A stretch of DNA of 44,943 nt, from positions 1 through 44,943 of the forward strand of contig JACPTJ010000236.1 in the NCBI GenBank assembly GCA_016192835.1, read 5' to 3'. The DNA is from Betaproteobacteria bacterium. Lineage in GTDB: Bacteria > Pseudomonadota > Gammaproteobacteria > Burkholderiales > SG8-41. Within the stretch, counting starts at the first letter, position 1. Each line of letters begins with the position of its first letter. The translations under genes and the position numbers were made by a program. The notes beneath the pieces were generated by a model, which was not told the DNA's origin, did no database searches, and worked only from the letters and a program-made list of their open reading frames with translations. Positions 428 through 44,943 of the stretch are shown here, one piece after another.

Positions 428-1290
428 GTCCTGGAGCTAAACTGAGAAAACTTCTGGCGGGGGAGCGTATCGTAGTGGGCGGCGGCGCGCACGACGCATT
501 GAGCGCGCGCATCGTCGAGCAGGCCGGCTATCCAATGTGCGTGGTGACCGGCGCGGGCGTTTCGATGTGCCGCGGCTATCCCGACGTCGGGCTCGTCACC
601 ATGGAAGAGATGGTGAGGAATGCCCGTTACATTGCCGAGGCCATCGAGATCCCCATCGTCGTCGATGCCGATAACGGTTACGGCAACGCGATCAATGCCC
701 GCCGCACCGTGCGCGAGTTCGAGCGCGCGGGCGTTGCCGGCATCCACATCGAAGACCAGGTCTGGCCCAAGCGCTGCGGCCATATGTTCGGCAAGAAGTT
801 GATCCCGGCCGAGGAAATGGTGCAGAAGATCCGGGCGGCGCTCGAGGCGCGGCGCGACCCCGACTTCGTCATCATCGCGCGTTGCGACGCGCTGCTGGTC
901 GAAGGGCTGGACAAGGCGCTCGAGCGCGGCGAGGCGTACATAAAAGCCGGCGCCGACATGCTGTGGCTCGAAATGCGCGAGTCGCTCGACGAAATCAAGG
1001 CGATCGCCGAGCGCTTCCGCGGCCGCATTCCGCTGGTGTTCAACCATTCGCCCAGCGGGATGGTGCCGCGGCTGCCGGTTGCCGAGCTCGAGGCGATGGG
1101 ATTCAAGACGGCGTGTTTTTATGTCCATGCCCTCATGGCGGCGTGCAAGACCATGCAGGAAGTCCTGCGCGAAATCAAAGCGACCGGCAACTCACTGACC
1201 GTGTGGGATCGTATGGTGAGCTTCGAGGAGTTCTGGAACATAGCCGGACTGCCGGAAATTCGCGAGCTGGAGAAAAAGTATGGCGCATGA
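424..1290 (+). CDS. Isocitrate lyase/PEP mutase superfamily C-C lyase (methylisocitrate/dimethylmalate/oxaloacetate lyase-like), paralog 1
   Basis: Trimmed from ORF 85..1290, whose first 113 aa overlap tctA and are Arg/Ala-rich shadow. Start is ATG 424. It has the VDADNGYGN block and the EDQVWPKRCGH loop (K-[KR]-C-G-H signature of the ICL family). Confidence 0.85.
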   Translation: MSPGAKLRKLLAGERIVVGGGAHDALSARIVEQAGYPMCVVTGAGVSMCRGYPDVGLVTMEEMVRNARYIAEAIEIPIVVDADNGYGNAINARRTVREFERAGVAGIHIEDQVWPKRCGHMFGKKLIPAEEMVQKIRAALEARRDPDFVIIARCDALLVEGLDKALERGEAYIKAGADMLWLEMRESLDEIKAIAERFRGRIPLVFNHSPSGMVPRLPVAELEAMGFKTACFYVHALMAACKTMQEVLREIKATGNSLTVWDRMVSFEEFWNIAGLPEIRELEKKYGA

Positions 1291-3028: not shown

Positions 3029-5121
3029 TGCCCGGTGGACGTCCGCTGCGCATCGGCGCAGACATCGGCGGGACATTCACCGACCTCGTTTTCCTGTGCG
3101 CGGACGGGACGCTGCACAAGCGCAAGCAGCCATCGACGCCGGCGGACTATGCGGAGGCGATCATCAAAGGCGTGACCGCTTTCTGCGAAGAGCAGCGCTC
3201 GCCGCCCGGTCAGATTACCGAAATCGTTCATGCCACAACGGTTGCAACCAATGCGATTCTCGAGCGCAAGGGTGCACGCAGCGCATTGCTGACCACGGCG
3301 GGATTTCGCGACGTCCTCGAGCTGCGGCGCATACGCATCCCGATGTCTTACAACCTGAACTGGCAAAAACCGCTGCCGCTCATCGAGCGTGAGCTGCGGA
3401 TTCCGATCGCGGAGCGCATCGATGCGCGCGGCAATGTTCTGATCCCGATTGACACGGCTGCGTTCGAGGCGGTCGTCGCGCTGCTCGAGGAATGCTGCGT
3501 CGAATCGGTCGCCGTGTGCTTCCTGCATTCCTACCGCAACCCGCAACATGAACGACTGGCCGGTGACATTCTCAAGCGCGATCTGCCGCGCATTCATGTG
3601 TCGTTGTCCCACGAAGTGCTGCCTGAGATGCTCGAGTTCGAGCGCACGAGCACCACGGTCGTCAATGCCTACGTTGCGCCGCTGATCGCGACTTATCTCA
3701 GCACGCTGCGGGACCGCCTGCGGCAACACGGTGTCGATGCACCGATTCTCGTCATGCAATCGAACGGAGGGCTCATCAGCGCCAATGTGGCTGCCGAGCG
3801 CCCGGTCGTAATCATCGAATCCGGTCCAGCGGCGGGTGTGGTGGCCGCCGCGCGCCTTGCGCGCGACAGCGGCTACGAGAACGTCATCACGCTCGACATG
3901 GGCGGCACCACGACCAAGGCGTCAATTATCGAACGCGGAGAAATGTTGCGTGCAACGGAATACGAAGTCGGCGCGGCGGCGTCGGTCAGCAGCAGACTGA
4001 TGCGCGGCAATGGCTACGTGCTGCGGATTCCCGTGATCGATGTCTCCGAAGTGGGCTCCGGCGGCGGCAGCATCGCCGCCCTCGACAGCGGGGGGTCGCT
4101 CCGCGTCGGCCCACTCAGTGCAGGGGCGGTTCCGGGACCGGCATGTTACGGACAGGGTAACGAGTTGCCAACCGTTACCGACGCGAATCTGGTGCTCGGA
4201 TATCTCAATGCGCACTCACTGGCCGGCGGCGCACTGCACATCCGCCGCGACCTCGCCGAAGCGGCGATTCTGCGCCATGTCGCGGACTGCAGCGCGCTGT
4301 CAATGGACGAGGCGGCCTATGGGATCCATCTCGTCGCGAATTCCAACATGGTGCGCGCCATCAAGATGGTTTCGGTCGAGCGCGGACGCGATCCGGCTGA
4401 ATTCATGATGATGGCTTTTGGGGGCGCCGGGCCGATACACGCGGCCGGCGTCGCGCGCGAGCTGGGTATCACGCGCGTGCTGATTCCGCCTTCACCCGGC
4501 GTATTCAGTGCATTCGGCTTGTTGCGGGCGGAGGTCGAGCAGCATGCCGCGAAAACCGTGCTCACCCTTACGCACCACGCGGACCTGACGGCCATACAAT
4601 CCGCGCTCGAGGCAATGCGCGAGGAGCTTGTAACACGGTTTGCGTTGGAGGGCTATCCGGAAAGCAGGATAACGATTGCGACTTTTGTGGATCTGCGCTA
4701 TCGCGGTCAATCGACCGAAATCACCGTACCGATTACACTGCCGCTCATCGAGACCGAGCTTCGTGTCGCCGAGGCGCGCTTCGAAGCGGAATTCGAGCGG
4801 ACTTACGGTCATCGAGGCCACAACAAGGAATTCGAGCTCGTGACTTGCAGGTTGATCGCATCAGTCATCCGACACGCGGAACACGCGGCGGCGTGGGCTG
4901 CCGAGCTCGGTGGTGCTGCGCAGGCGGAGCGCCTCGCATATTTCGGACCCCGCTATGGGGCGCTGCAAACTCCGGTGGTCGGCCGCGCAGGCCTTCGCGC
5001 GCAAGCGCGGCCGGGGCCGCTCATCGTGCAGGAATACGATACCAGCGTAATCGTTCCACCCGAATGCACGATTGCGCTCGATGCGCACAACAATATCGCC
5101 ATGAACATCGGAGTCGAATGA
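3025..5121 (+). CDS. hyuA: Hydantoinase A/oxoprolinase family protein
   Basis: ATG 3025 overlaps the hyuB stop (ATGA). It has the IGADIGGTFTDLV ASKHA phosphate motif and a second LDMGGTTTKAS motif. The longer ORF start at 2947 lies inside hyuB. Confidence 0.9.
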   Translation: MMPGGRPLRIGADIGGTFTDLVFLCADGTLHKRKQPSTPADYAEAIIKGVTAFCEEQRSPPGQITEIVHATTVATNAILERKGARSALLTTAGFRDVLELRRIRIPMSYNLNWQKPLPLIERELRIPIAERIDARGNVLIPIDTAAFEAVVALLEECCVESVAVCFLHSYRNPQHERLAGDILKRDLPRIHVSLSHEVLPEMLEFERTSTTVVNAYVAPLIATYLSTLRDRLRQHGVDAPILVMQSNGGLISANVAAERPVVIIESGPAAGVVAAARLARDSGYENVITLDMGGTTTKASIIERGEMLRATEYEVGAAASVSSRLMRGNGYVLRIPVIDVSEVGSGGGSIAALDSGGSLRVGPLSAGAVPGPACYGQGNELPTVTDANLVLGYLNAHSLAGGALHIRRDLAEAAILRHVADCSALSMDEAAYGIHLVANSNMVRAIKMVSVERGRDPAEFMMMAFGGAGPIHAAGVARELGITRVLIPPSPGVFSAFGLLRAEVEQHAAKTVLTLTHHADLTAIQSALEAMREELVTRFALEGYPESRITIATFVDLRYRGQSTEITVPITLPLIETELRVAEARFEAEFERTYGHRGHNKEFELVTCRLIASVIRHAEHAAAWAAELGGAAQAERLAYFGPRYGALQTPVVGRAGLRAQARPGPLIVQEYDTSVIVPPECTIALDAHNNIAMNIGVE

Positions 5122-24231: not shown

Positions 24232-26337
24232 CTAGCGACCCAGCACCACTGCGTCCAGTGCCCAGGCACCGGCGCCGGTGAATCCCAGCCCCAGAGGGTT
24301 GATCTCCATTTCGACCAAAGAGTCACCCAGGCTCAGCGCAAGCCGGCTCAGACGGCAGATCACGTCCGCCGCGGCTGACAGATCCGCCGCGGGGCGCCCT
24401 CGAAATCCGGACAGAAGCGGGTAGCCCTGCAGTTCGCGCAGCATCTCCGTTGCTTCGTCGTGGGACAGGGGCGCAGGCCGAATAGCGAAATCCCGCAGCA
24501 CTTCGGCATAGATGCCACCCATGCCGACCAACACCACCGGCCCGAACTCCGGACTGTTCCGCACTCCCACAATCAGTTCCGCAACCGTGGGAACCATCCG
24601 CTCAACTACAACCCCTTGCACGGCTCCTTCGGGTAAGACGGCGCGCGTGCGGTCCGTCACCGCGCGGAATGCCGCCACTACCGCGTCGCGATCCGCGAGA
24701 CCGAGGGCAACGGCTCCCAGATCTGATTTGTGGTTAAGTCCCGTGGCCACCACCTTCACGGCCACCGGGTAGCCAACCCCATCCGCCACCGCTACAGCCT
24801 CCACCTCATCCCTGGCCAGACCCCCGGCAGGAGCGGGAATGCCCGCGACTGTCAGCAACGCCTTACCCTCGGGCTCAGTCAGGGCGGGCCCTGGAACCGA
24901 CAATCGGCGAATGAGGTCGTGCGGTATATGAATGGGTGGCAAAGGCGCAATTTCGGGTGCCCCCGTGGCATCGGGGCGGGAGAACACGCCCCGCATGGCT
25001 TGCGCCAGGGCTCCAGCCGAATCGAAAACCGGCACGCCCTGATCCCGCAACGGTTGGAGGTACTTGCGGGCCATGCCGTCAACGGTGTATACCGCCAGCG
25101 GCTTGTGCAACTCGCGGCAAATCTCCTGAATGACCGCCTGCTGGAGTGGCGACCGGGCAGCACTATTGGAGAGAACCACCACCATCGCTCCGACGCCCGG
25201 GTCGTTGGCCACGGCTGTCAGTGCGCCGCGGAACACAGACACATCACCTAGACCGGCGGTGGTGAGATCGAGGGGATTCTGGGCGCTTCCCCAAGCGGGG
25301 AGCAGCCCGCGCAGCAGGTCTGTGGTCTCCGGGGCAAAGGACGCCATACTTACACCCACCTCTTCCAACAAGTCGGTCACCAGAATGGCACCGCCGCCGG
25401 AGTGAGAAACCACTGCTACGCCGCTATTCGCAACACCGGAGCCGGTTCGGGATAAAACCTGGGCTGTCTCGACCAAATTGTCAAGATCGTCCACCAGTAC
25501 GACGCCAAGGCGCTGGGTCACTGCCAGAAAGGCCTGCTCATCACCCAGAATGCTCCCCGTGTGCGAGGCTGCCGCCCGCCGGCCGTTGCCAGAGCGGCCC
25601 AGCCGGCAAAGCACCACAGGAACCTTCCGCTCAGCTGCCTGCCGACAAACGGCAATAAACGATCGCGGCTGTTTAAGTCCCTCAATCACAGCGCACAGCG
25701 CCCGTACTTCCGGGTCTTGAAGCATCCATCCGAAGTACTCGCTCAGATCAATGTCAGCCTCGTTGCCACTGGCAACGGCGTATCGAAAGGCAATGCCCCG
25801 GTCGGCACCGCGGGAAAGACATGCGCTGCAAAGTGCTCCGCTCTGGGAGACCAAGCCGATGTGTCCCGCGGGAAGCGGCCATTCCATGGGGGCAGATGAT
25901 GCCGTCAGCATGATGCGATCTCTCGTATTGACTATCCCCAGGCAGTTAGGGCCGGCGATACGAACGCCTAGCTTCCGCGCCAGCGCCACCAGGTCCGCTT
26001 GGCGCCGGACGCCCTCCGATCCCGCTTCAGCAAAACCGGAGCTATAGACAATGGCTGCCTTGGCGCCCCGGCTCGCGCAGGCCTCGAGTGTGCCCAGAAC
26101 CTCGGCAGCCGGAACCGCCAGGTAGGCTGCATCGATCTGCCCGGGAATCGCTGTCACCGCAGGCCAGCACCGGACGTCGGCAATCTCCGTTGCAGTAGGG
26201 TTTACGGGATATATATTCCCTGGGTAGCCATGCCGCAGCAGGTTGGATAACGGGCGCCCCGTTACCTTGTCCAAGTTGGCCGAAGCCCCGACGATGGCTA
26301 CTGCCCTTGGTCGAAATAGTGGGTCCAGCAAATGCAT
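24232..26337 (-). CDS. ADP-forming acyl-CoA synthetase (acetate--CoA ligase family; fused CoA-binding, ligase-CoA and ATP-grasp domains)
   Basis: It has the PRAVAIVGAS CoA-binding N-terminus, the AASHTGSILG phosphohistidine loop and a C-terminal ATP-grasp region (GYPVAVKVV...). The start is ATG 26337 (MHLLDPLF). Confidence 0.85.
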   Translation of the reverse strand: MHLLDPLFRPRAVAIVGASANLDKVTGRPLSNLLRHGYPGNIYPVNPTATEIADVRCWPAVTAIPGQIDAAYLAVPAAEVLGTLEACASRGAKAAIVYSSGFAEAGSEGVRRQADLVALARKLGVRIAGPNCLGIVNTRDRIMLTASSAPMEWPLPAGHIGLVSQSGALCSACLSRGADRGIAFRYAVASGNEADIDLSEYFGWMLQDPEVRALCAVIEGLKQPRSFIAVCRQAAERKVPVVLCRLGRSGNGRRAAASHTGSILGDEQAFLAVTQRLGVVLVDDLDNLVETAQVLSRTGSGVANSGVAVVSHSGGGAILVTDLLEEVGVSMASFAPETTDLLRGLLPAWGSAQNPLDLTTAGLGDVSVFRGALTAVANDPGVGAMVVVLSNSAARSPLQQAVIQEICRELHKPLAVYTVDGMARKYLQPLRDQGVPVFDSAGALAQAMRGVFSRPDATGAPEIAPLPPIHIPHDLIRRLSVPGPALTEPEGKALLTVAGIPAPAGGLARDEVEAVAVADGVGYPVAVKVVATGLNHKSDLGAVALGLADRDAVVAAFRAVTDRTRAVLPEGAVQGVVVERMVPTVAELIVGVRNSPEFGPVVLVGMGGIYAEVLRDFAIRPAPLSHDEATEMLRELQGYPLLSGFRGRPAADLSAAADVICRLSRLALSLGDSLVEMEINPLGLGFTGAGAWALDAVVLGR

Positions 26338-26402
26338 GTCGCCGGATCTCCCGGTAATTTTTGTGCCACCACCACCGGGCCGGCGCATGGACTGCGCCTA
26401 GC

Positions 26403-27857
26403 CTAGTTAAGCCTGGCGCCCGCTCCCAAGGGAAGCCCCTTGCTGAGGGCGTAGATATCGGCGATGGTCATGTTATAGGAAGGTTTCCGCCCCTCCAGTT
26501 CACCTCTCCGGGCCACTTGCTCCTGGTGATACTCCCACACCGTGGCCGGGAGCGGGATATTTCCCGGATCCAAGTAGCGGAATGCTCCTGACCAATCTCG
26601 AACGGGCATGACCCGAGCCCGATTGTGCTGGTTGGGGGAGAACGGAATGTCAATGACGCCCGCCTTGAAGGCGGCAACCACCCCCCGCGCGAGATCGCCT
26701 TCGCCCAGTTCCAGCACCCGGTTCATCACGGCACGTACCTCACAGCGCAGCATCTCCGTTTCCGTCCGCAACTGCTCTGTTTCCGGGAAAGCCGAACATG
26801 CGGCATACTCCAGCATGGTGCGTGTCGCAACACATCCCTGAACGTTGGCCTCCCGGGTCGGCACGCCGAAGGCTTCGTCGGGTGTCTTGACGATGGTCAT
26901 GCTGGCCCCACCCCAGGCAGCGACTGCCGCCCCGGCACAAATGATGCTGTAGGCTTTGGCCTCATCCTCGGGAAAGCCGCCCATCCACTGGTGTAGCGAA
27001 GTTGTCACCACAGCGTTGGTGTACCGGAGACGGGCGGCGTACTCCTCGCCCATCTCCCGCATCACCCGCAGCGCGGCAATGTCCTGGTACAAAGACCCGT
27101 TCTGACCGTAGGCCAGCAGACAGTGGTTCGCACCTTGACCCATTTGCAAAAGCCCATCAATAACGGTGACTACAATCTGAAGGCCGGGCGGAACCACCGA
27201 ACACAGGGGAATGTAATGCTCACGACTTACAGGGCAGCCGTTGTCTTCGTAGTAGCCCGCCAAGCGATCAACGTACTGCCAGTTGTAAATGATCTCTTCC
27301 ATTGAAGTATCTTTGGAATAAGCCAGATCACCCATCGCGCCGTGCGAGTGCCCCGTGTACCCCGCTGCCAGCATGATTTCGGCACCCAGGCGAAAGTCTG
27401 GCGTGGCCGTACGCACAATGAGAGGGCGTTCCAGGGCCTCTACCACCTGTCGGCACCCTTTCACCCCGTAACTGACCGACGGAAAACCGTTAAGCATGGA
27501 ACGGCCACGCTCCAGGCTTTCCTTGCGGGCAGCTTCAGCTTCGGCAAACTTCCGGTTTCGGGTGTAGCTATCAATGGTAGATGGCAACAGGTCTGCGCTC
27601 CCGTGGTCCTGCAGAAACCGCAGCAACTCAATCTGCTCTTCTATCAAAGCGACGCCGGCACGGGGCTGGATCAGCACGCGTCCAGCCGCCCTGGCCCCGG
27701 CCAGTGCGTGAGCAGCGTTGCGCCCGGCCGGAAGTCCCCGGTGATAAGCCAGGGCCTCCTCCAAGTCCACTCCCCGGCCGGTGGGCCACTGCGCCAACAC
27801 AGCCTGGCGCTCGGCCATGAAATAGTCCAGATCCCACTTACGCTGCAAGATCTCCAT
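26403..27857 (-). CDS. Glutamate mutase E (epsilon) subunit-like protein, paralog A (closer to canonical GlmE)
   Basis: 484 aa. AAAGGAGG lies 9 nt upstream of ATG 27857. Blocks shared with GlmE are WPTG, QPRAGVAL, LPSTIDSYTR, LNGFP, VKGCR, HQWMGGFPEDEAKAY, IVKTPDEAFGVPTREAN and MPVRD. Confidence 0.85.
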   Translation of the reverse strand: MEILQRKWDLDYFMAERQAVLAQWPTGRGVDLEEALAYHRGLPAGRNAAHALAGARAAGRVLIQPRAGVALIEEQIELLRFLQDHGSADLLPSTIDSYTRNRKFAEAEAARKESLERGRSMLNGFPSVSYGVKGCRQVVEALERPLIVRTATPDFRLGAEIMLAAGYTGHSHGAMGDLAYSKDTSMEEIIYNWQYVDRLAGYYEDNGCPVSREHYIPLCSVVPPGLQIVVTVIDGLLQMGQGANHCLLAYGQNGSLYQDIAALRVMREMGEEYAARLRYTNAVVTTSLHQWMGGFPEDEAKAYSIICAGAAVAAWGGASMTIVKTPDEAFGVPTREANVQGCVATRTMLEYAACSAFPETEQLRTETEMLRCEVRAVMNRVLELGEGDLARGVVAAFKAGVIDIPFSPNQHNRARVMPVRDWSGAFRYLDPGNIPLPATVWEYHQEQVARRGELEGRKPSYNMTIADIYALSKGLPLGAGARLN

Positions 27858-27917
27858 CCCCCGCAACCTCCTTTGAGTACAGACCCCTTACCAGGGTAGT
27901 ACGTAAGTAACTAACTG

Positions 27918-29411
27918 CTAACGGCCAATCAACCGGCCTTCGGAGGCAGCAACGACGTCTGCCTGGGTCAGATCGAAGTCCAGGGGCTTGCCGGACAGGC
28001 GGGACCGGATTTCCAGCTGGCTCTGGTGGAATTTCACAGCTTCGGCCGGCAGGGGCAGATTGCCATGATCCAGGAACCGGATGGCCCCTTTCGCATCCCG
28101 GGCGGGCATCACCTTATTGGCAATGGGTAGCCAGCAGGAGAACGGGCAGTCCAGTACCCCGCTCTCAAACGCCTTGGCGGCGCCCACCACCACGTCACCG
28201 TCGCCCAGCTCGATGACCCGGTTCACAATGGCGCGTGTTTCAATCTCGATGTAGTGCATTTCCTCAGCGAGTTCGGGGGAGTCGGGAAATTTCTGGTTGC
28301 AGAGCATGGTGATTACGGCCTTCGTTGCGCGCAAGGCCTGTGCGTTGGCCTGGGCCGTCGGCAGGCCCGTGGCCTCCTGAACCGACTTCACGATGACCTG
28401 GGTGGCTCCCCCAAGAACGGCCGCCATGGAATTCCAGCAGATCAGTGCGTAGCTCCGAGCCGGGTCGTGGGGAAAGGCCCCTGTCCACTGGTAGAACGTG
28501 GTGGATACCGTCACATCCGCAAAGTCAAACCGTGCCATGTACTCGCCGGCCAGCCGTTTCAACACCCGGACACCTGCTACATCCTGGATCAGATTCCCGG
28601 TGGCGGTATACCCGGGGCTGACGAACTTGATTCCCTGGGCAGCCTGAATCAGACTGTCAATAATGATATAGGACAGGCAGATGCTGGGGGGAATGAGCGT
28701 GCCTGACAGGCCGCCGTACACTTCATGGTTGATCGGCCAACCGTGCTCCGTGTACCAGGCGCCCAGCCGGGCAACGTATTGCCAATTGCGAATCGAGTCG
28801 GCCAGCGCTACATTCTTGTGATGTGATGTCGGCATGATGATGCCGCCGCAGGGCACATCGGAGAAGCCGGAAGCCCAGGCGACCTCCATCACAAGACGGG
28901 AGTCTGCGGCGCCGGACCGCACGACAAGCGGGCGATCGACAGCCTCACGCACGCGCCGGCAACCCTGGATACCGTAGTTGGCGACCGGAAAGCCGTTGAT
29001 CATGTTGCTCCCCTCGCGCCGGCTCTCCTCGATGCCCAGTTCAGCCATTTGATAGTTATTCTCACGGGTATGGGTGTCAAGGTTGGTGGGCAGGGCATCG
29101 GCCTGTCCATCGTTTTGCACTTCCAGCAACACCTTGATCCATTCGTCAATGAGGGCGATGCCTGCTCTAGCAGCCTGTTTACGCGGTAAGTCCGACAGGC
29201 TGCCAGGCTGCATTACGGTCCGGCCCTCGGTCAGCGCCTGCTTTAGCACCCAGGCCTGATTCTGATGGGGTGGCAGCGTGCGCAAATAGGCGACGGCCTC
29301 GTCCAGGTGAACCTCCCGGCCAGTGGGCCACGTACCCAAGACTTCCCGCCGCATTGCCTGGAACTCTTCGTCCGACCAACGGTGCATTCTTAGGTCTGGC
29401 TGATCTTTCAT
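27918..29411 (-). CDS. Glutamate mutase E subunit-like protein, paralog B (divergent, with an insertion)
   Basis: 497 aa, collinear with GlmE: WPTG, QP[12-aa insert]RAGIAL, THTRE, INGFP, IQGCR, YQWTGAFPHDPARSY, IVKSVQEATGLPTAQAN and MPARD. The ATG overlaps the glmL stop (ATGA). Confidence 0.8.
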   Translation of the reverse strand: MKDQPDLRMHRWSDEEFQAMRREVLGTWPTGREVHLDEAVAYLRTLPPHQNQAWVLKQALTEGRTVMQPGSLSDLPRKQAARAGIALIDEWIKVLLEVQNDGQADALPTNLDTHTRENNYQMAELGIEESRREGSNMINGFPVANYGIQGCRRVREAVDRPLVVRSGAADSRLVMEVAWASGFSDVPCGGIIMPTSHHKNVALADSIRNWQYVARLGAWYTEHGWPINHEVYGGLSGTLIPPSICLSYIIIDSLIQAAQGIKFVSPGYTATGNLIQDVAGVRVLKRLAGEYMARFDFADVTVSTTFYQWTGAFPHDPARSYALICWNSMAAVLGGATQVIVKSVQEATGLPTAQANAQALRATKAVITMLCNQKFPDSPELAEEMHYIEIETRAIVNRVIELGDGDVVVGAAKAFESGVLDCPFSCWLPIANKVMPARDAKGAIRFLDHGNLPLPAEAVKFHQSQLEIRSRLSGKPLDFDLTQADVVAASEGRLIGR

Positions 29412-30802
29412 ATCTCCTCTAGATTCTCTCTAAGGACCGTGTACGCAACGTCCGGAAAGCGTTCAGCCAGGAGACCCATTCCGTACAGGATGTAGCGCCG
29501 GTCGATCCAGTACTGGGGATGCACGGGTTTGAGCTTCATCGGGTCTCCATGCGTGACCGACTCCAGCACCGCCTTGTATCCTTTGCCGTACGCAAAGATA
29601 CCGCCCGTTCCGACTACGGGCTTCAACTGCCGAAGGTCCTTGCCATACTGAACGAAGGTTTTCCCTTGCGCGGTCCACACTTCTTCCAGCATACCGCAAT
29701 GCCGATCGGTGGCGACAGCCACGGCCACTGCTGCCAAGGCCCTGTCAATGGCAAACTCCTGATCGGAGTCCGGCGTGGTGGCGGTATGGCGGACCCGGCG
29801 CTCCACGGCCAGCGCCAGCTCTTCGGGTGGCAGCGAAATGTCCTTGAACAGCCCGTAAGCTCTCCCGACCTCCAGAATGGTCTGGGCGTTGATGCGCAGG
29901 CCCAAGTCGCCTTCAACGGTACGCTTGACCCGTGGTTCCGGCAGGCCCTTGAGCGCGACTCCAGGCGTAGTCGGCGTCCCGACGGCTACGGTGTGAACGT
30001 CGGTGGTGGCGCCCCCCACATCCACCACCATGGTCTCGCCCAGTCCGCTTGCTCCGGGCGGACCGTCCGCCAACAGTTGGGTGGCCCGCAACACCGCCAT
30101 GGGGGTTGGCATGATGATGTCCTCAACCAGCTCGCGAGCCCGGTCTAACCCCTTGGCGTGAACGATGCGTTCAATAAACAGCTGGCGAATAAGGTCGCGG
30201 GCTGGTTCCACGTTCAAGCGATCCAATTCCGACAGCACATTCTCGGTCAGCCGGGCATCAATGCCGGCGGCGAGCAGAAGATCTACCGCTTCCGGACCTA
30301 CACTCTTGTTCCCCGCTACCACCACGGGAGTCTGCAGACCGGCCGCGGCCATGCTGCGCGCGTTTGACAATATCGTATCGGTATCGCCGCCGTCCGTCCC
30401 GCCCGCCAACAGGATCACGTCCGGGGCCAGGTTTTTCAACTCCGCGATTTCCGTCCGGCTCATCTTATAACCGAAGGCCTTGATCACCTTGGCGCCGGCC
30501 CCCAGCGCTGCCCGGCGCGCCGCCTCAACCGTGAGGGAGGGTACCAGACCCACCGCGACCATGCGCAGTCCGCCGGCAGCACTGCTGCATCCCAGCATAA
30601 GGGCCGCGGAGGGGATATCGATGCCCTGACCGCTTAATCGCCCAAGCGCCTGATGCAGCCCGATCGTAACGTCGGAATCAACTGTTGACGGGGCCTGGGC
30701 CGTGCCCAAGAGCCGGCGCCCGGCAAGGTCCACCGCAATGACTTTGGTAAAGGTGCTGCCGAAATCCACCAGGACCGCCAGCTTCACTTTGCTGGTGCTC
30801 AA
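29408..30802 (-). CDS. glmL: Glutamate mutase accessory protein GlmL/MutL-like (ASKHA-fold chaperone/reactivase)
   Basis: 464 aa with LVDFGSTFTKV, LLAGGTDGGD and VVDVGGATTDVH ATPase motifs. The TTG start at 30802 overlaps the glmS stop (TTGA). GTG 30787 is an alternative start. Confidence 0.8.
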   Translation of the reverse strand: MSTSKVKLAVLVDFGSTFTKVIAVDLAGRRLLGTAQAPSTVDSDVTIGLHQALGRLSGQGIDIPSAALMLGCSSAAGGLRMVAVGLVPSLTVEAARRAALGAGAKVIKAFGYKMSRTEIAELKNLAPDVILLAGGTDGGDTDTILSNARSMAAAGLQTPVVVAGNKSVGPEAVDLLLAAGIDARLTENVLSELDRLNVEPARDLIRQLFIERIVHAKGLDRARELVEDIIMPTPMAVLRATQLLADGPPGASGLGETMVVDVGGATTDVHTVAVGTPTTPGVALKGLPEPRVKRTVEGDLGLRINAQTILEVGRAYGLFKDISLPPEELALAVERRVRHTATTPDSDQEFAIDRALAAVAVAVATDRHCGMLEEVWTAQGKTFVQYGKDLRQLKPVVGTGGIFAYGKGYKAVLESVTHGDPMKLKPVHPQYWIDRRYILYGMGLLAERFPDVAYTVLRENLEEI

Positions 30803-31212
30803 ATGCGGAGGTCGGCGCGCAAATCCCGAATGACCTGGTCAGGCATGGTACCGGGGGGATATGCACGGTCAAATCCCATGTTCAGGAACGTTCTTTCCAC
30901 CAGTTCCCAATCCTGCCTGCCCACCATCAGGTTGCCTCCGCAATACATCAGAATGTCGTGCAAACCGGCTTCGCGGCATTTGTCCCGGAAACCCCGGCAG
31001 TCAATCTCGCCATGCCCGTACAGGGAAGACACCAGGATGGCGCGTGCGGCCGTCTCTTGAACTGCATGGATGAAGTCTGCCTGGGATACGAAGATTCCCA
31101 GGGTCACCACGTTGAACCCGGCCTCGCGCAGAGCATAGGCCAGGATTGAGTTGCCAATGATGTGCACGTCGGCTCCGAGAACCCCGGTAACGATCGATAT
31201 CTGTTCTCTCAT
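30799..31212 (-). CDS. glmS: Glutamate mutase S (sigma) subunit-like B12-binding protein
   Basis: 137 aa from ATG 31212. It has GADVHIIGN (DxHxxG base-off/His-on motif), VSSLYGHGEIDC (SxL) and YCGGNL (GG). It is collinear with clostridial MutS/GlmS. Confidence 0.85.
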   Translation of the reverse strand: MREQISIVTGVLGADVHIIGNSILAYALREAGFNVVTLGIFVSQADFIHAVQETAARAILVSSLYGHGEIDCRGFRDKCREAGLHDILMYCGGNLMVGRQDWELVERTFLNMGFDRAYPPGTMPDQVIRDLRADLRI

Positions 31213-31630
31213 GGGTGGACCACTGCATACGCTTCCTGCCATTCAACCTGAATTTCCTGAAAATCCACAGTATCGATTTCCCTTGAAAACAAGCAGAAGC
31301 CCAATCGAGGCTCATCCATCGCCGCCTCCAGCCGTCGATTATCGCTTTGCGCTTCACAATCCCATCTTGCTGGGCGCGCTTTCCAAAAAATTATTTTCCG
31401 TCGTCAACTGGCCGACGATGGGGTCAGCGCTGGTTCCTCTTGGCGCGTCAGGTCGAATACAAGTACCCTAAGCTGCCTCCCCGCTTTTCCTGAAGATTCT
31501 AGTTCGGCGGGTTGCCAACCGTCAATGGAACGAAATCGCCGGTAGTGGGTCAGTCAGAGCGGCCCAATGCCATGTAACATAGAAAATATCCGGGCCGCGC
31601 GCATCATTCGCCAACCGGAAAGGAAACCCA

Positions 31631-34599: not shown

Positions 34600-36280
34600 A
34601 TGCCTGCTGTCAATAACGATGGATACTACGAAGTGTTCTGGCCGCGCAGTCCGCGGCAAGCTAATCTGAAGCCGGTTGCGAAACGGCTCGATACCCTGGA
34701 AGGCAAGACGGTTGCACAGCTTTGGGATTTTCTGTTCCGGGGCGACGAAGTGTTCGCACTGTTGGAAGAAGGTCTGAGAGCGCGCTATCCTGGCGTGCGT
34801 TTCGTAAGCTGGCGCGATTTCGGCAACACCCATGGTCGCGATGAACGGGAAGTACTCGCCCGGTTGCCGCAGCGCTTGAAGGAACTGGGGGTTGACGCCG
34901 TTATCTGCGGGATGGCGTGTTGAGGGAGCTGCACGCCCGCCGTGTTGCGGGCGAGTGCAGTCTGCGAGGAAGCCGGCTACCCGACGTCATCGCTCACGTG
35001 CGAAGGTTTTCTGCGGCAGGCGGTCGCGATATCCGTCGGCCTCGGCATGCCGAATATTCCGGTTGCGTTGGTACCGGGCCACGTTGGCACGCAGAGCAAG
35101 GACGAGCTACGGCGCAATATACTTGAGGTCACCGCCGAAAGGGTCATCGAGAACCTGACCCGCACGCTGGCGGCGGGCAGCGGTAACGCGGAGCCCGGAG
35201 CACGCGACATCATCTTCAAAGGCGGCTTCAAGGCGGTGAACCGCCACTTCTATGAGAAGGAGTTGAGCGACGGGCTGCCTGTCGTTCCCCCGACGCAGGA
35301 GGATGTCGAGGCCTTCCTGCGCTTCACCGACCGCGACTCCAACGAGGTGCTGGGCACCATCCTTCCCGACCAACGCGCGGCGACGATCTGGAGCATCGCG
35401 GTAAACGGTGTCATGGCCGGATGCCGCCCGGAATACATGCCGATTCTGGTCGCACTCGTCGAAGCGATGGCCGATCCCGCCTACGGCGTCGAGCACAGCG
35501 GCAATACCCCCGGGAGTGATACGCTCATTATCCTGAACGGACCCATCATCGGGCAACTGGGCTTTAACTACACGCAAGGCGCGTTGCGTGACGGATTCAT
35601 GCCGAACACTTCGATCGGGCGGTTCTGGCGGCTTTACCTGCGCAATGTAGCCGGCTTCCTGCCACGCAAGAACGACAAGGCGACTTTCGGCAATACCTGG
35701 CGGGTGGTGCTCGCGGAGAATGAAGACGTTCTGAAGAAGATCGGCTGGGAACCCAACAGCGTCGAAATGGGATTTAGCGCGGGCGAGAATACGGTGACCA
35801 TCGGGCGCTACACGGGAGGCGGCTCGTTTTCTTCCGTTTCGGGGAGTACGCCGGAGCAGATGCTGCCTTATCTTGTCGATTCGGTGCTCAAGTACCACAC
35901 GTGGCAACTCTTGTTCACTGTGAGCGTCGGCAGCGGGTCGCTACGCCCCCTGCTGGTGATAACCCCGCTCATCGCCGAGACCATTGCGAAAGCGGGGTGG
36001 TCGAAGGCGGACGTGAAGCGCTATCTCTATGAACATGCACGATTGCCGGCATGGGAGTTCGAGCGTTATCTGCGCGACTGGACTATCAGGGGTGTGTGGA
36101 ACCTCGAGGAGGAGGTACGGTTGGGGCGCATGCCTAAGATTGCGCAACAATGCGTATGTGTTTGCGCACAACGGCTTTCTCGGCTATCCGGTGGGCAAGC
36201 GCATCGAACTGCCGCGGGATTGGCAACAGAAACTGGCCGCTCTCGAGTCCTGACGCCAAGACTGTTGTTGGCGCCAGAGG

Positions 36281-40032: not shown

Positions 40033-41397
40033 TCACACGCTTTCGTATTCGATCGGAAACATCTCATAGGGATCGCGAGGCTCGACCACGTGGCGCAGCG
40101 AGAACTCGTATATCGCGCCGCGCTCGATATCGGAAGGCGAGAACGGAAACGCCATATTGCCTTCCTTGCACATGCGCCCCGGAAAATCGGTGTGCAGCAG
40201 CGTGACGCGCGTAACTGAGATCACCACGTTCGCGAGCTCCTGCGTTTTGGCGATGGCCTCGGCGAGGACGCCGATCTCGTGCGAGGCCGCATCTTTCAGC
40301 GGCTCCCATTCGCCCATCACGCCGTCTTTGCCGTACAGGCGCAGCACGAGCCGGTATTCTTCGGGCGAAACCTGAAAGGCCGTGACTTTGGTCGCGACGG
40401 ATTCGCGCACGGCGCGGATGAAGTCGCCGATCTGTGCGATCAATCCGGGATCGCGCGTGCCCGCAAAAGTGATCGCGCTGTATCCCACTTTCTCCGCCCC
40501 TTCGAGCTTGATCGTGTAGGGCTGCGGCCGCCATTGCATGCCGGACACTCGCACCGCGCGCTCGGTGTGCGCCTTGATCTCACACGCGCTCGTGTCGAGG
40601 AGACCGCCCGGCTCTTTGTGGATGATGGGGCTCGCGTTTTCGTGCAGCGCCTGCACCGCGACCGAGAGCGGCGTGCAGCGCAACTCGGGATTGAGCGGCT
40701 CGACTTCGACGTAATCGGGCGCGACCGTCCCCATGAGACAATCGTGCTTTTTCGGCAGCGCTGCATTGCATGCGCATTCGAGCATTTTGCCGGCAAACCA
40801 CGCTTGAGCGGGCGGCATTCCATGATGCATCGCGAGCGCGGCCCACGGCGCCGGATCGGTACTGCGGCCAGCCAATATCACTTGTGCGCCGGCTTCGAGC
40901 GCAGCCCTATAGGGCTCCGGTCCCATCATGCCGACGATGCGCTCCGCGCGGTCGATCACGGATTCCGTTAACGGCGCTGCGCCGCCGAGCGGATGGATGC
41001 GATCGGCCTGGAGCTGGTCTTTGAGCCACGCTTTGTTCTGCTCCGAATGAATCAGCGCAAGCTTGAAATGAAGGTCGTGCTCGCGCGCGATCTCACGCAG
41101 GATCTCGGCGCAGGTCTGCAGATGCGGTTCGCCGCCCGCGCCGCCGCAAGTGCCGATCATCATGGGGATGCGATTGGCGATGGCCCCGTGCAACAGCAGC
41201 GCCATGTCTCGCTTCATTGCGAGGCGACTGCTCAGGGTTTTGCCGGAGCCCAGGTAGTGCGGGCCCGGATCGGAGCTGCCGCCGTCCACGCCTATCATGT
41301 GCGGCTTGCGACCCAGTCCCGCTTTGAGCGAGCTCTCGGGGAAACCATAGCCGAGAATACCGCTCGCCGAAACCATGCGCACTGCGTCATGCTTCAA
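40033..41397 (-). CDS. DUF1446 / AtuA-like protein, copy 2
   Basis: 454 aa with ASGILGYGFPESSLKAGLGRKPHMIGVDGGSSDPGPHYLGSG and MIGTCGGAGGEPH. It is homologous in layout to 7103..8473. Confidence 0.8.
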   Translation of the reverse strand: MKHDAVRMVSASGILGYGFPESSLKAGLGRKPHMIGVDGGSSDPGPHYLGSGKTLSSRLAMKRDMALLLHGAIANRIPMMIGTCGGAGGEPHLQTCAEILREIAREHDLHFKLALIHSEQNKAWLKDQLQADRIHPLGGAAPLTESVIDRAERIVGMMGPEPYRAALEAGAQVILAGRSTDPAPWAALAMHHGMPPAQAWFAGKMLECACNAALPKKHDCLMGTVAPDYVEVEPLNPELRCTPLSVAVQALHENASPIIHKEPGGLLDTSACEIKAHTERAVRVSGMQWRPQPYTIKLEGAEKVGYSAITFAGTRDPGLIAQIGDFIRAVRESVATKVTAFQVSPEEYRLVLRLYGKDGVMGEWEPLKDAASHEIGVLAEAIAKTQELANVVISVTRVTLLHTDFPGRMCKEGNMAFPFSPSDIERGAIYEFSLRHVVEPRDPYEMFPIEYESV

Positions 41398-41719
41398 TTT
41401 GTATCTCCGATAACCAAACGAGCCCGTGCACTCGTTGAAAATGCCCCAATCTTACCTGCTTCTCTCACAGTATACTCGACTGCTGTCCGGTTAATTTTGG
41501 TAGGCATCACCTGATACCACCTGCATGATCAGGAGTGTACCCCCCAGCGCGCAAGGCAAGCGAAAGAAAGTTGATTTTGGTGCCGCGTGACACGCTCCGC
41601 AGTCGCATCTATACTTCGTATGCGCACCGCGCCAACTACGTCAATTCACCGAAGATGCGTTGGGCATGCACCACCCGATTGGCGGAAGTTAGAGGGCTTA
41701 ATCGAGGAGAGGGGGGCAG

Positions 41720-42691
41720 ATGAGCAGGCGAATAGTCAGCGGAGTAATTGGCACTGGTCTCATGATAGGCTTGATGGGGTTTGCGCAGGCGCAAGGCTAC
41801 CCCGACCGCCCCATACGCGTGGTCGTGCCGACTTCTCCCGGTGGTCTTCTTGATACGGTCATCCGGCCGCTCGGACAAAAACTCGCGGAGTCCCTTGGAC
41901 AACCCTTCGTCATAGAGAACCGCCCGGGGGCTTCGAACATCATTGGTATCGAACTCGTTGCGCGCTCACGCGCCGACGGATACATTCTTCTCGGTAGCAC
42001 ATTGCCCTTAGTGGTCAACCCGAGTCTATTCTCAAAAGTTCCATACGATGCCGAGAAGGACTTCATCCCAGTGTCGCTCCTCGTTGCGTCGGCATATGTG
42101 GTATCAGTCCACACATCAGTGCCGGTAAAATCAGTGAAGGAGTTAATTACGCTTGCGAGAGCGAAGCCGGATACAATCAACTATTCATCCGGCGGGAACG
42201 GAACAAATCTTCATATTGCCGCTGAATTGTTGATGAGCCTCACCGGCATGACGATGACTCATCTATCTTACAAGGGTGGAGGGCCAGCGTTGCTCGCTTT
42301 GGTTTCCGGCGAAGCTGATCTGAGCATACCCTCCGTCGCTGCCGTCCTGCCTCAAGTAAAAGCGGGCAGAATCCGGGCGATTGCCGTCACAAGCAAAAAA
42401 CGCTCGCGGCTTCTTGCCGATGTTCCTACCGTCGCCGAGGCTGGTGTGTCCGGTTACGAGTTCACTAGCTGGATCGGATTACTGGCACCGGCAGCCACCC
42501 CTGGTGACATCGTCACCAAGCTCCACCAACACATTGTCAAAGCACTGCACTCTTCGGATTTATCGGCTCGATTCGCGGGTGCTGGCATGGATGTCATAGC
42601 AAGCTCGCCGGAGGAGTTTCGTAAATACCTGCATGCAGAGCTGGCCAGGTATGCCGAACTCGTCCAGAAGCGGGGTTTGCGAGAGCGTTAG
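41720..42691 (+). CDS. Bug/TctC family substrate-binding protein
   Basis: AGGAGAGGGG lies upstream. It has a signal peptide, then YPDRPIRVVVPTSPGGLLDTVIRPL and YSSGGNGTNLHI. Confidence 0.9.
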   Translation: MSRRIVSGVIGTGLMIGLMGFAQAQGYPDRPIRVVVPTSPGGLLDTVIRPLGQKLAESLGQPFVIENRPGASNIIGIELVARSRADGYILLGSTLPLVVNPSLFSKVPYDAEKDFIPVSLLVASAYVVSVHTSVPVKSVKELITLARAKPDTINYSSGGNGTNLHIAAELLMSLTGMTMTHLSYKGGGPALLALVSGEADLSIPSVAAVLPQVKAGRIRAIAVTSKKRSRLLADVPTVAEAGVSGYEFTSWIGLLAPAATPGDIVTKLHQHIVKALHSSDLSARFAGAGMDVIASSPEEFRKYLHAELARYAELVQKRGLRER

Positions 42692-42710
42692 CCCTACGGA
42701 AGAGTTGATT

Positions 42711-43556
42711 CTATGCCTCCCTGCACGCTATGCCGTCGTATTGCGAAATGAAGTGGAGCAGTTGCATGGCGCAGGTGGCTGGCGAGAAGATCTGAATGCT
42801 GTGATATCGTGACGGAATACGCACGATACGCACATTGTTGACGTGCGCGCGCAGCAACTGGAGATGTTCATCTTTTGTGATGATGCCGCCTTCCGGATAT
42901 AGTCCGAGGACAGGTGCCGTGATCCTCGACAGATAAGGCGTGGCGTCGGCGTTCGATATCCATTGAAATAGCGCGATCAGGACATCAACGTCCGAGCTCC
43001 CCATCTCATCGAGGGTCCACGCTAGCATTTTGGGATCAGAGTCCGGGGGGAACCGTCGTCCTGCATTGGAGGCCTCTAACCATCCCCGCGAGCCCATCGC
43101 TCGCAATGCCGCTACCCTGTCCGGGTAGCCACCCAATGAGCTTTTCTTGTCTTCCTCAGTCATGTAAACGGGCGATGAAATGACGGTGAGGGTGCGTATC
43201 CGCTCGGGACACTCCGCCGCGAGTGCGAAAGCAATGGTGCCACCGGACGATTCTCCGCAGAGATGGACAGAATCCACGCCGAGATGGTCAAGCAGGTCAT
43301 TGAAGTCCGTCAAGTAGGCTGAGACTCCGATATCTTTTTTTAAGTCGAAGTCTTTTCCAGACTGCCCGAGGCCACGCAGATCGGGTCGTATTATGCGGTA
43401 GAACCGGCTCAGATAGGGAACCAACGCACGCCAGAACTTGGACGAACGGGCGTAGCCATGCTGAAGTAAAAGATAAGGGGCTTGCTTCCATGGATCCGTA
43501 AAGTCGTCCAACTCATAGTACAACCTCGGATGACCAACTCTCTCAAATACTGGCAT
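42711..43556 (-). CDS. Alpha/beta hydrolase, paralog 2
   Basis: 281 aa from ATG 43556. It has the GESSGG nucleophile elbow and is collinear with 5215..6060, including the tail LLHFISQYDGIACREA. Confidence 0.85.
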   Translation of the reverse strand: MPVFERVGHPRLYYELDDFTDPWKQAPYLLLQHGYARSSKFWRALVPYLSRFYRIIRPDLRGLGQSGKDFDLKKDIGVSAYLTDFNDLLDHLGVDSVHLCGESSGGTIAFALAAECPERIRTLTVISSPVYMTEEDKKSSLGGYPDRVAALRAMGSRGWLEASNAGRRFPPDSDPKMLAWTLDEMGSSDVDVLIALFQWISNADATPYLSRITAPVLGLYPEGGIITKDEHLQLLRAHVNNVRIVRIPSRYHSIQIFSPATCAMQLLHFISQYDGIACREA

Positions 43557-43665
43557 GCAGATCTCCCTCGGTAGACGCCGACTCACACGACTGTTCGTGC
43601 CGGCCGCTCAATTGTACGCTCTTAAATCCTCGTTCTTGTCGAATAACGAAGACGGGGGATAGTTT

Positions 43666-43746
43666 ATGGATTGGCCGCGTATCTTGGCCTATATTACCGG
43701 GACGGTGGACCAGGAGCTACTACTTCGCAAGGAGTATCTGGTTTGA
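43666..43746 (+). mobile_element. Remnant of a transposase/integrase N-terminus (26 codons, then a stop)
   Basis: It translates to MDWPRILAYITGTVDQELLLRKEYLV*. This matches, from memory, the N-terminus of a widespread DDE integrase-type IS transposase (...ILAYITG.VDQELLLRNEYL..ENRIL...). No catalytic domain follows. Confidence 0.45.
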
Positions 43747-43750
43747 TGCG

Positions 43751-44943
43751 TCAGCGCCGCGGCAATAGCCCGTCCCAGTCGCGCGGAAGAGTGACCTTGC
43801 GGCTCACCGGCGGCCCCTGCGTGTGATTGCTGCAGTAGCACTTGGACTGGTTGCGGCCGGGGTCACCGGCGATGACGATCCCGATCGACTCGGGGTTCAG
43901 GAACACGCGCACGCGCCGTTTCGGATCGTCCGACGCGCAATACTCCGGCGGCAGCAGACCTTTCGCGACCTGATCGCGTAAGCGAAAGCCCGTCAAGCCG
44001 ATATAGTAGGCGTAGCGCTCTGCGTCATCGGCTGCAATCCAGAGGTTGTCGTACAGGTACTGCCGGATGTCGGTCTTGCTCCAGCCGTGGTCGGCGAATA
44101 CTTTCGCGATGCTCGGACCCATCACGATGAGCGGATTGTTTTTCGAGTACGCCATCCCGACGGGCGACCAGTAGCCGCAGCTCTGCCCGACGACTTCGGC
44201 GAGCACGCGCGCGTGCTCCAGCGGATCATCGCTGCCGGTATAAAGCGGCGGGCTCACGCTCACCACGCTTTGCACGGTCACGATGTTCTCACCCGGCTGG
44301 AAGCCGCGATCGGCGGAGTAGGGCAGCCAGCCGACCTCGCGGCACGCCTCTTCGTTTTCGGCCAGCGCAACGAAAAAGTTCTGCGCGATGCTGCCTTTGT
44401 CGCCGGCGCCGGGCGCGAAGCGAAAACCCGCCATGTTGCGCAGGATCAAACGCAGGAAACGGCCAACCGTGCCGTTCGCGCGGCGCCCGATGCGCATCAC
44501 GCTCGCGCCGCTGTTGAAGTCGAGCTGGGTTGCGATGGGGCCGCTTACCGTGATGAGCGGCTCCCAACCGGGCGTCGAGCCCGCATCCTGCATTCTGAAC
44601 TCGGGATCGGTGACCGCTTCGACCACTGCGATGAGTAGCGGCATGTACTCAGGGCGACAGCCCGCCATGACGCCGGTCACTGCAATGTTCCACACCGTCG
44701 CCTCCCGGTTGTCGGGCGGGCAGACACCGATCACTTCATCCGGTGCGCGCCCGGTAAAGCGCAGGAAGCGCTCGACCTGCGCAAGCGTCGGCGGAAAGAC
44801 GGGCAGGCCGTCGGTCCACATCGCATCGTAGAAGTGGTTGTTGACTTCTTCGAGCGTGCCACGGAATACGATTTCCCGGGGCGCCGGCTCGCGGGCCGCG
44901 GCCTGCTTGCGCTCACTTGCGCGTGTTGATGTCAGAGCCTCGA
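43751..44943 (-). CDS. Paralog of the uncharacterised C-terminal domain of the selenoprotein gene; 5' end outside window
   Basis: The frame stays open upstream of Met 44821 to the window edge (...EALTSTRASERKQAAAREPAPREIVFRGTLEEVNNHFYDAMWTDGLPVFPPT...). It shares GVMAGCRPEYMP, GWSK.D...YLY and LPRDW blocks with 34600..36297. Confidence 0.75.
   Translation of the reverse strand, partial: EALTSTRASERKQAAAREPAPREIVFRGTLEEVNNHFYDAMWTDGLPVFPPTLAQVERFLRFTGRAPDEVIGVCPPDNREATVWNIAVTGVMAGCRPEYMPLLIAVVEAVTDPEFRMQDAGSTPGWEPLITVSGPIATQLDFNSGASVMRIGRRANGTVGRFLRLILRNMAGFRFAPGAGDKGSIAQNFFVALAENEEACREVGWLPYSADRGFQPGENIVTVQSVVSVSPPLYTGSDDPLEHARVLAEVVGQSCGYWSPVGMAYSKNNPLIVMGPSIAKVFADHGWSKTDIRQYLYDNLWIAADDAERYAYYIGLTGFRLRDQVAKGLLPPEYCASDDPKRRVRVFLNPESIGIVIAGDPGRNQSKCYCSNHTQGPPVSRKVTLPRDWDGLLPRR

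Follow-up and report, generated by a model that had tools for sequence, protein, structure and literature searches.

Within a stretch of 44,943 nucleotides from a Betaproteobacteria bacterium (positions 1 to 44,943 of contig JACPTJ010000236.1, assembly GCA_016192835.1; hereafter the window), we analysed a minus-strand gene that runs off the right-hand edge, here called copy B, together with a plus-strand relative, copy A. The copy B open reading frame (ORF) almost certainly encodes the last two-thirds of a selenoprotein that has two domains and is about 577 residues long; its absent N-terminal part is predicted to be a UGSC alpha/beta domain of about 185 residues. With copy B, a known but uncharacterised selenoprotein family gains a member, and the fusion itself is probably already in the literature. 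In environmental metagenomes, UGSC proteins rank with the most abundant selenoproteins, and they have no known function (PMC2398784, PMC13188914). We find that their selenocysteine (Sec) domain is normally fused to, or encoded beside, a specific 375-residue domain with one invariant cysteine.

The gene at the window edge and its paralogue

The copy B frame (43751-44943, minus strand) is open from position 44941 to a TGA stop at 43751-43753 and comprises 396 codons, the translation beginning EALTSTRASERKQAAAREPAPREIVFRGTLEEVNNHFYDAMWTDGLPVFPPTLAQVERFLRF. As a first-pass annotation of this DNA had stated, and as re-translation reproduced exactly, the frame remains open upstream of its first ATG, at 44821, to the window end. 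The 5' part of the gene, about 550 nt and including the Sec codon, is outside the window. What remains visible is the inter-domain linker with the last residues of the final helix of the UGSC domain (44885-44941, minus strand, aligning to copy A residues 184-205), followed by an uncharacterised C-terminal domain of about 377 residues, from PREIVFRG to LPRDWDGLLPRR (43754-44884, minus strand). Within the latter, the codon at 44657-44659 specifies a cysteine that is invariant in alignments (C95 of the fragment, within GVMAGCRPEYMP). Orthologues of copy B share 95% protein identity with the fragment, and the nearest database proteins are 465 aa long and start MLRASAA.

To recover the missing 5' part we turned to near-identical contigs. 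One metagenome contig (L001) shows 97.8% DNA identity to window positions 41001-44943 across 3944 nt and runs on for 442 nt after the edge, where nothing interrupts the frame except an in-frame TGA, GVGA-U-GACTPAVLRASA, located about 75 codons beyond position 44943. A second contig (L002, 94.5% DNA identity) reaches the start codon, giving a whole gene of 577 codons, MSEQQPVYPVVWP...GVGA-U-GACTPAVLRASA..., with an AAGGAG ribosome-binding site 8 nt ahead of the ATG. The L002 protein, its U replaced by C for the comparison, matches Pfam UGSC over residues 10-185 at 100.4 bits (cut-off 25). Gene calls on both contigs place a 105-codon ORF just upstream, then the TGA and five codons before the called protein. 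The first-pass annotation had proposed that extending the contig would uncover a UGSC or CGSC motif, encoded with TGA or TGC; the TGA is indeed present in both contigs, but the motif it belongs to reads U-G-A-C. In the copy B orthologues (L001, L002, L010 and L011) the surrounding motif is A-U-G-A-C, so that U-x-x-C is kept and serine is replaced by alanine. Neither a stop nor an unrelated N-terminus, which that annotation had named as grounds for abandoning its proposal, lies upstream in L001 and L002, which read on into the UGSC domain.

Copy A (34600-36253, plus strand), 7.5 kb from copy B, begins with an ATG at 34600 and carries Sec as codon 108 (TGA at 34921-34923, motif C-U-G-S-C); its N-terminal part matches Pfam UGSC (PF24696) with 96.2 bits over residues 11-187 (cut-off 25). 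BLASTP aligned copy B to copy A from copy A residue 184 onwards with 139 identities in 334 positions (42%; E 2e-81), far above chance and in line with the relationship proposed earlier. The two copies are paralogues. The alignment had also been described as spanning the linker and the tail of the UGSC domain. The linker is covered, but since the UGSC match of copy A ends at residue 187, the window fragment of copy B overlaps just the last few residues of the domain, the domain itself lying outside the window. Similarly, the cysteine-containing block GVMAGCRPEYMP does occur in both copies, whereas the C-terminal LPRDW, also said to be shared, is found in copy A only in the +1 frame.

This frame difference results from an 86-nt deletion in copy A, whose junction was placed at 36140/36141 by DNA alignment with contig L087 and by protein comparison. 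The protein encoded on L087 (P0271) is 98% identical to copy A and has a normal C-terminus. The deletion shifts the frame and eliminates a conserved segment of 29-30 residues, IFHESGDPNRMVPIVWKPEDYMIAVTGDPL; the sequence LPRDWQQKLAALES and the true stop at 36251-36253 are present only in the +1 frame, and frame 0 continues to 36297. Either copy A has recently become a pseudogene, or the assembly is wrong here.

The in-frame TGA and its hairpin

To characterize the TGA codon we drew on relatives from a scan of one genome per species, which gave 585, and examined the best 80 together with previously fetched contigs. At every locus with enough upstream sequence, an in-frame TGA occupies the same position, in 85 of 85 distinct sequences, within the conserved motif G-[AGS]-U-G-[ASGT]-C-[TSA]-P-A-V. 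The carriers belong to Betaproteobacteria, Alphaproteobacteria, Chloroflexi, Dehalococcoidia, Methylomirabilota, Rokubacteria, Acidobacteriota and Sedimentibacter. The second cysteine of U-x-x-C is likewise invariant (85/85). Full-length homologues of 556-588 aa with cysteine at the Sec position also exist (P0122, P0123, P0130, P0272 and P0304), and in a full-length AlphaFold2 model of P0304 the motif is positioned at a strand-to-helix junction, where a beta-strand ends and a helix starts.

A hairpin resembling a selenocysteine insertion sequence (SECIS) follows the TGA. In copy A its core, GCCCGC CGUGUU GCGGGC, lies at 34935-34952 (plus strand) and starts 11 nt after the UGA, with an outer stem extending to 34929-34960. 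Across 86 sequences, the stem joins nucleotides 15-20 after the U of the UGA to nucleotides 27-32, and every one of its six pairs is formed in 79-86 of them; the 6-bp stem begins 11 nt after the UGA, and the loop is NGUNNU with the G and U invariant. Because the conserved peptide CTPAVxRA is encoded by the same nucleotides, compensatory changes in the stem are few (GC to AU twice, GC to UA once and CG to UG six times). At the paired third positions (Thr ACG, Pro CCC, Arg CGG) the entropy is 0.50-0.60 bit, compared with 1.4-2.0 bits where these amino acids occur in three control motifs of equal conservation and 1.4-1.85 bits at the third positions of the loop and bulge. In a relative in which the gene is split (L090), the hairpin is similarly placed after the UGA but differs in sequence. 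Folding z-scores of single sequences reached no significance for this region of GC-rich DNA, and we therefore relied on conservation, pairing counts and synonymous-site entropy instead. At Rfam gathering thresholds nothing in the window matched, curated SECIS families included, and tRNA scanning detected no tRNA gene and no tRNA-Sec there.

The geometry of the Escherichia coli fdhF SECIS was reportedly described by Liu et al. 1998 and Huttenhofer et al. 1996. Like the fdhF element, the present hairpin is located inside the coding region, its upper stem starts 11 nt after the UGA, and a G and a U are conserved in the apical loop. In contrast to fdhF, it has no Rfam match and no evident bulged U, and its sequence is family-specific and constrained by CTPAVxRA.

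Conservation of the TGA, the existence of cysteine homologues, stem pairing with suppressed synonymous change, and the adjacency of selA and selB at related loci (see below) together lead us to regard the fusion protein as a genuine selenoprotein on sequence grounds. It is hardly credible that the TGA is a true stop that separates a fragment of about 105 aa from a protein of about 465 aa and places the window ORF in a non-selenoprotein. Such a stop would agree with public gene calls, which split every locus at the TGA, and with the lack of significance of the hairpin z-scores in GC-rich sequence. However, Pfam UGSC crosses the TGA as one match (residues 11-187 in copy A and 10-185 in the L002 protein), frame and residues are conserved on both sides of it in 85/85 sequences, and full-length homologues have cysteine in its place. 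In addition, synonymous change is suppressed in the stem codons, selA and selB are adjacent, and the called downstream ORFs begin M/V-LRASA within a helix, without a ribosome-binding context of their own. The idea that copy B is here a truncated or decayed remnant without a UGSC domain is also very improbable. It draws on the invisibility of the N-terminal domain in the window and on the frameshifting 86-nt deletion in copy A, which illustrates that decay or mis-assembly does happen on this contig; with copy A itself damaged, a broken copy B would be unsurprising. Yet the 396 codons of copy B are intact, 95% identical to those of its orthologues in protein and retain every invariant residue, and contig L001, 97.8% identical over 3.9 kb that include the neighbouring genes, reads in frame through the TGA.

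Family architecture and the C-terminal domain

The family is large. Searching with the C-terminal domain alone (a word-index-free search at E<=1e-3, representatives at 50% identity) returned 4085 representatives, and the copy B fragment has at least 2974 homologues at E<=0.001. Most members found with the C-terminal domain are 440-476 aa long, and about 15 of the best 150 are full length at 556-588 aa. The listed public calls (P0001-P0120 and P0271-P0390) are mostly 455-475 aa, and the 11 that we inspected start M/V-LRASA, six codons after the Sec TGA, while the first 105 or so residues of family members are called as a separate small ORF in public annotation. Since the inspected proteins start just after the TGA, they are truncated gene calls, and with nearly every inspected database entry truncated in this way, the true architecture is hidden from routine annotation. 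The same architecture and TGA recur in 85 distinct relatives from several phyla, and the fusion is thus a family and not an artefact, as had been suggested from the two copies in the window.

In some members the two domains are encoded by separate genes. In L089 (409-2132), the gene for the C-terminal domain directly follows a UGSC selenoprotein gene that has a TGA of its own, the two sharing an ATGA overlap, and in L090 (2756-4387) a UGSC gene with its own TGA ends in TAA, 6 nt before the ATG of the C-domain gene, which is followed by a gene for a TctC-family solute-binding protein. P0139 and P0258 are true split two-gene forms. Two candidates for stand-alone C-domain proteins were rejected, P0181 being a contig-edge fragment and P0202 the product of a late start call. 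Fusion of the two domains in most members, and their occurrence as tightly packed adjacent genes in others, is a classic sign that the UGSC domain and its partner are functionally coupled.

Other arrangements were also observed. P0242 is an exported cysteine form with a signal peptide; P0184 and P0212 are proteins of about 715 aa with two C-domain matches and no UGSC domain; and P0185 is a 1226-aa protein that combines UGSC and C-domain with the N-terminal repeats of copper amine oxidase. Several copies per genome are normal for the family. Tandem paralogues are common among its loci, and a Chloroflexi metagenome-assembled genome from groundwater (JACPQD01) contains more than 20 paralogues, often in tandem and interleaved with genes for family-5 solute-binding proteins and MmgE/PrpD (contigs L046-L053, L056-L063, L065, L069, L071 and L072).

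Our searches linked the C-terminal domain of about 375 residues to nothing of known structure or function. It gave no Pfam or NCBIfam match in copy A or copy B, and a Pfam search over all 76 members of its alignment found no recurring family, even at E<=5. A profile of the domain had 0 matches at E<=10 against all PDB sequences. An AlphaFold2 model built from the 76-sequence alignment reached a predicted local distance difference test score (pLDDT) of 87.2 and a predicted TM-score (pTM) of 0.87, and the full-length model of the cysteine form P0304 reached a pLDDT of 84.9 and a pTM of 0.89. Foldseek searches of the PDB with both models returned noise-level matches only (class I fumarase, cyanuric acid hydrolase and FtsZ; TM <0.3). 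For the C-domain model the top match, a class I fumarate hydratase, had E 2e-3 and TM 0.23, and cyanuric acid hydrolases came next. These results agree with the earlier impression that the domain, put at about 370 aa, belongs to no characterised family, and the profile and fold searches gave no clean mapping to a known enzyme family of the kind that would have contradicted it. A single cysteine, C95 of the fragment (GCRPE), is invariant in 76/76 and 45/45 sequences; in the predicted model it is placed between two helices, at the N-terminus of the second. Further invariant residues of the domain include D181-K182, E98, R79 and W84.

Could the domain be a diverged version of a known enzyme family, such as the class I (Fe-S) fumarate/tartrate hydratases or the pyruvoyl-bearing GrdE/PrdA? 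We consider this improbable. The best Foldseek matches are class I fumarate hydratases (E 8e-4 to 2e-3, probability 0.69-0.75), and the UGSC domain weakly resembles PrdB, the natural partner of which is PrdA. Nevertheless, the fumarate hydratase matches have TM-scores of 0.18-0.25 and root-mean-square deviations of 16-18 A, which is the random range, and the domain has one invariant cysteine and hence no set of three cysteine ligands for a 4Fe-4S cluster; membership of the class I fumarate hydratases fails on both counts. Moreover, no Pfam family recurs among the 76 members at E<=5, the PDB profile search had no match, and the position of the invariant cysteine between two helices is unlike the loops used for self-cleavage. 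PF09338 (GrdE/PrdA) was absent from the Pfam results for the C-terminal domain and from the scanned or Pfam-annotated neighbours, no profile-profile search having been made.

Gene neighbourhood, proposed function and known systems

We counted neighbouring genes in 78 loci, leaving out antisense shadow ORFs produced by greedy ORF calling (the c5, c8 and c13 clusters). TctC genes were the most frequent (25), followed by SBP_bac_5 (18, mainly in Chloroflexi), MnmA (13), MmgE/PrpD (11) and family III CoA-transferase (5); the MnmA count reflects synteny among orthologues. In the window, an alpha/beta-hydrolase gene (42711-43586, minus strand) lies directly downstream of copy B in the same gene order as in L001, and a gene for a TctC-family solute-binding protein, a recurrent neighbour type of the family, follows at 41720-42691 on the plus strand, again as in L001. 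Copy A is preceded by genes for PrpD and acyl-CoA dehydrogenase. At L003 (3132-9410) the fusion gene divergently adjoins selA (TIGR00474, 582 bits), selB and a gene for a thioredoxin-reductase (TrxR)-like flavoprotein with a CADC motif, which in this group scores below the TrxB equivalog cut-off and has MnmA downstream. This TrxR-like/SelB arrangement beside the fusion gene recurs at no fewer than 11 further loci of one betaproteobacterial orthologue group (L019, L022, L026, L029, L032, L033, L035, L038, L040, L041 and L044).

The wider surroundings have the appearance of a catabolic island typical of Burkholderiales. An AtuA-like (DUF1446) gene is present near copy B (40033-41397, minus strand), and a trio of AtuA-like, DUF4387 and TctC genes is present near the fusion gene of L003 (1098-2836); the association of AtuA-like genes with fusion genes may be coincidental. 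A cluster resembling the B12-dependent glutamate mutase occupies 26403-31242 on the minus strand, with two paralogous MutE-type genes (26403-27866 and 27918-29411), a MutL-type reactivase gene (29408-30802) and a small B12-binding subunit gene (30799-31242), and is adjoined by a gene for an ADP-forming acyl-CoA synthetase (24232-26388). Genes for hydantoinase B and hydantoinase A (oxoprolinase-type) lie at 1280-5121, and several TctC and MmgE/PrpD genes are scattered across the window.

For the mechanism we tentatively propose, by analogy, a selenol/thiol redox relay in a substrate-specific oxidoreductase, a suggestion that we hold with less than even confidence. In this scheme a small molecule from outside the cell, probably a carboxylate or an amino-acid derivative, would be handed over by the TctC-type or family-5 solute-binding protein encoded alongside and be bound by the C-terminal domain. 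The invariant Cys95 would react with the bound molecule, and the U-x-x-C of the UGSC domain would resolve the intermediate, turning into a selenenylsulfide. The thioredoxin system would then re-reduce the selenenylsulfide, possibly through the TrxR-like flavoprotein encoded beside selA, selB and the fusion gene. Taken as a whole, architecture and mechanism together, the reading that we favour appears reasonably probable. Several observations weigh against it. The N-terminal domain of copy B is outside the window, and its presence is inferred from near-identical contigs of other samples. The match to PrdB is far under threshold (15.7 bits against a 300-bit cut-off). The existence of the exported cysteine form P0242, with its signal peptide, implies that some members act out of reach of any NADPH-dependent reductase. 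Given the great number of TctC genes in Burkholderiales, their adjacency is by itself weak evidence, and the TrxR-like neighbour could serve selenium assimilation for selA/selB instead of the fusion enzyme.

The protein might also function without acting as a reductase, as a two-base isomerase or racemase or as a sulfur or selenium transferase, with Sec and cysteine flanking a bound carboxylate and no net redox turnover; we judge this unlikely. Two-cysteine racemases and isomerases have their nucleophiles at helix N-termini, and in our models each domain likewise offers one nucleophile at the N-terminus of a helix. MmgE/PrpD-family and CoA-transferase genes among the neighbours, and the existence of an exported cysteine form, would also be compatible with such an activity. 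On the other hand, the second cysteine of U-x-x-C, invariant in the 85 sequences, is the signature of a selenenylsulfide redox couple and would be needless in a two-base isomerase, a TrxR-like gene is adjacent, and Foldseek retrieved no racemase folds.

The UGSC-containing protein has appeared in papers from 2007 on as a selenoprotein family of unknown function (PMC1976440, PMC2398784). In the Global Ocean Sampling data it is among the most abundant selenoproteins, with 255 Sec forms and 21 cysteine homologues, and is enriched in non-marine samples (PMC1976440, PMC2398784). It was still uncharacterised in reviews from 2022 and 2026 (PMC9312934, PMC13188914). Zhang and Gladyshev (2008) reported a 'UGSC/Unknown_1' fusion with a conserved cysteine (PMC2398784), which probably represents the present architecture, and NCBI names some of the fusion proteins 'UGSC family (seleno)protein'. 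As far as we found, the UGSC literature does not report that the partner domain lacks any Pfam, NCBIfam or PDB match, that split as well as fused forms exist, that paralogues have expanded, that the family is linked to solute-binding proteins or that selA, selB and a TrxR-like gene lie close by, nor does it give quantitative SECIS evidence. Together, the features of the family point to residues to mutate, a reductase to try and binding proteins with which to fish for substrates.

Compared with the UGSC family as defined (Pfam PF24696, NCBIfam NF041046), the N-terminal domains of copy A and of the copy B orthologues match PF24696 at 96-100 bits, Sec is likewise part of U-x-x-C, and Sec forms far outnumber cysteine forms; the copy B lineage differs in having U-G-A-C rather than U-G-S-C. 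Against NF041046, which describes a small stand-alone protein, copy A scores 38.4 bits, the curated cut-off being 125. By this measure the fusion proteins are related to the stand-alone UGSC protein without being equivalogs of it. A thioredoxin-like fold has been suggested for the UGSC protein (PMC2398784), but the best fold matches of our model of the N-terminal domain, which are flavodoxin-like or Rossmann-like, do not support it. Foldseek gave partial matches to the FtsZ N-terminal, flavodoxin-like, SIS and B12-binding domains. In a comparison of the UGSC domain with PDB sequences, only thioredoxin-like matches were obtained, at E of about 0.5 and outside the redox motif.

With MsrA/MsrB and the thioredoxin-coupled ArsC, the fusion proteins would share a catalytic cysteine in the substrate-binding part, a resolving U/C-x-x-C and a TrxR-like flavoprotein as ultimate reductant, although no relationship in sequence or fold exists and the comparison is one of analogy only. 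GrdB and PrdB, the selenoprotein B subunits of glycine/sarcosine/betaine reductase and D-proline reductase, resemble the present family in a weak local match near the Sec motif (TIGR04483, E 0.008) and, under the proposed mechanism, in combining a U-x-x-C selenoprotein with a second, substrate-binding polypeptide and in having thioredoxin-system recycling encoded nearby. Copy A itself was rejected as a GrdB/PrdB protein, TIGR04483 giving 15.7 bits where 300 are needed and PF07355 being absent from the Pfam results. In the Pfam results the partner domain shows no similarity to GrdE/PrdA, it has no sign of a pyruvoyl-forming cleavage site, and the family occurs mostly in Burkholderiales, Chloroflexi and lineages of soil or groundwater rather than in amino-acid-fermenting clostridia. 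A bolder suggestion, which we regard as possible though doubtful, is that there could be a large class of selenocysteine-dependent enzymes, so far unrecognised, in which the C-terminal domain, with a fold absent from the PDB, binds the substrate and carries out catalysis, and in which the paralogues, diversified by gene duplication to more than 20 per genome, would each be paired with their own solute-binding protein and would each reduce a different imported organic acid or amino-acid derivative. If so, the family would be the counterpart of the clostridial glycine and proline reductases in Burkholderiales, Chloroflexi and other soil, groundwater and freshwater lineages, and may be the main reason why some Betaproteobacteria keep the selA/selB machinery.

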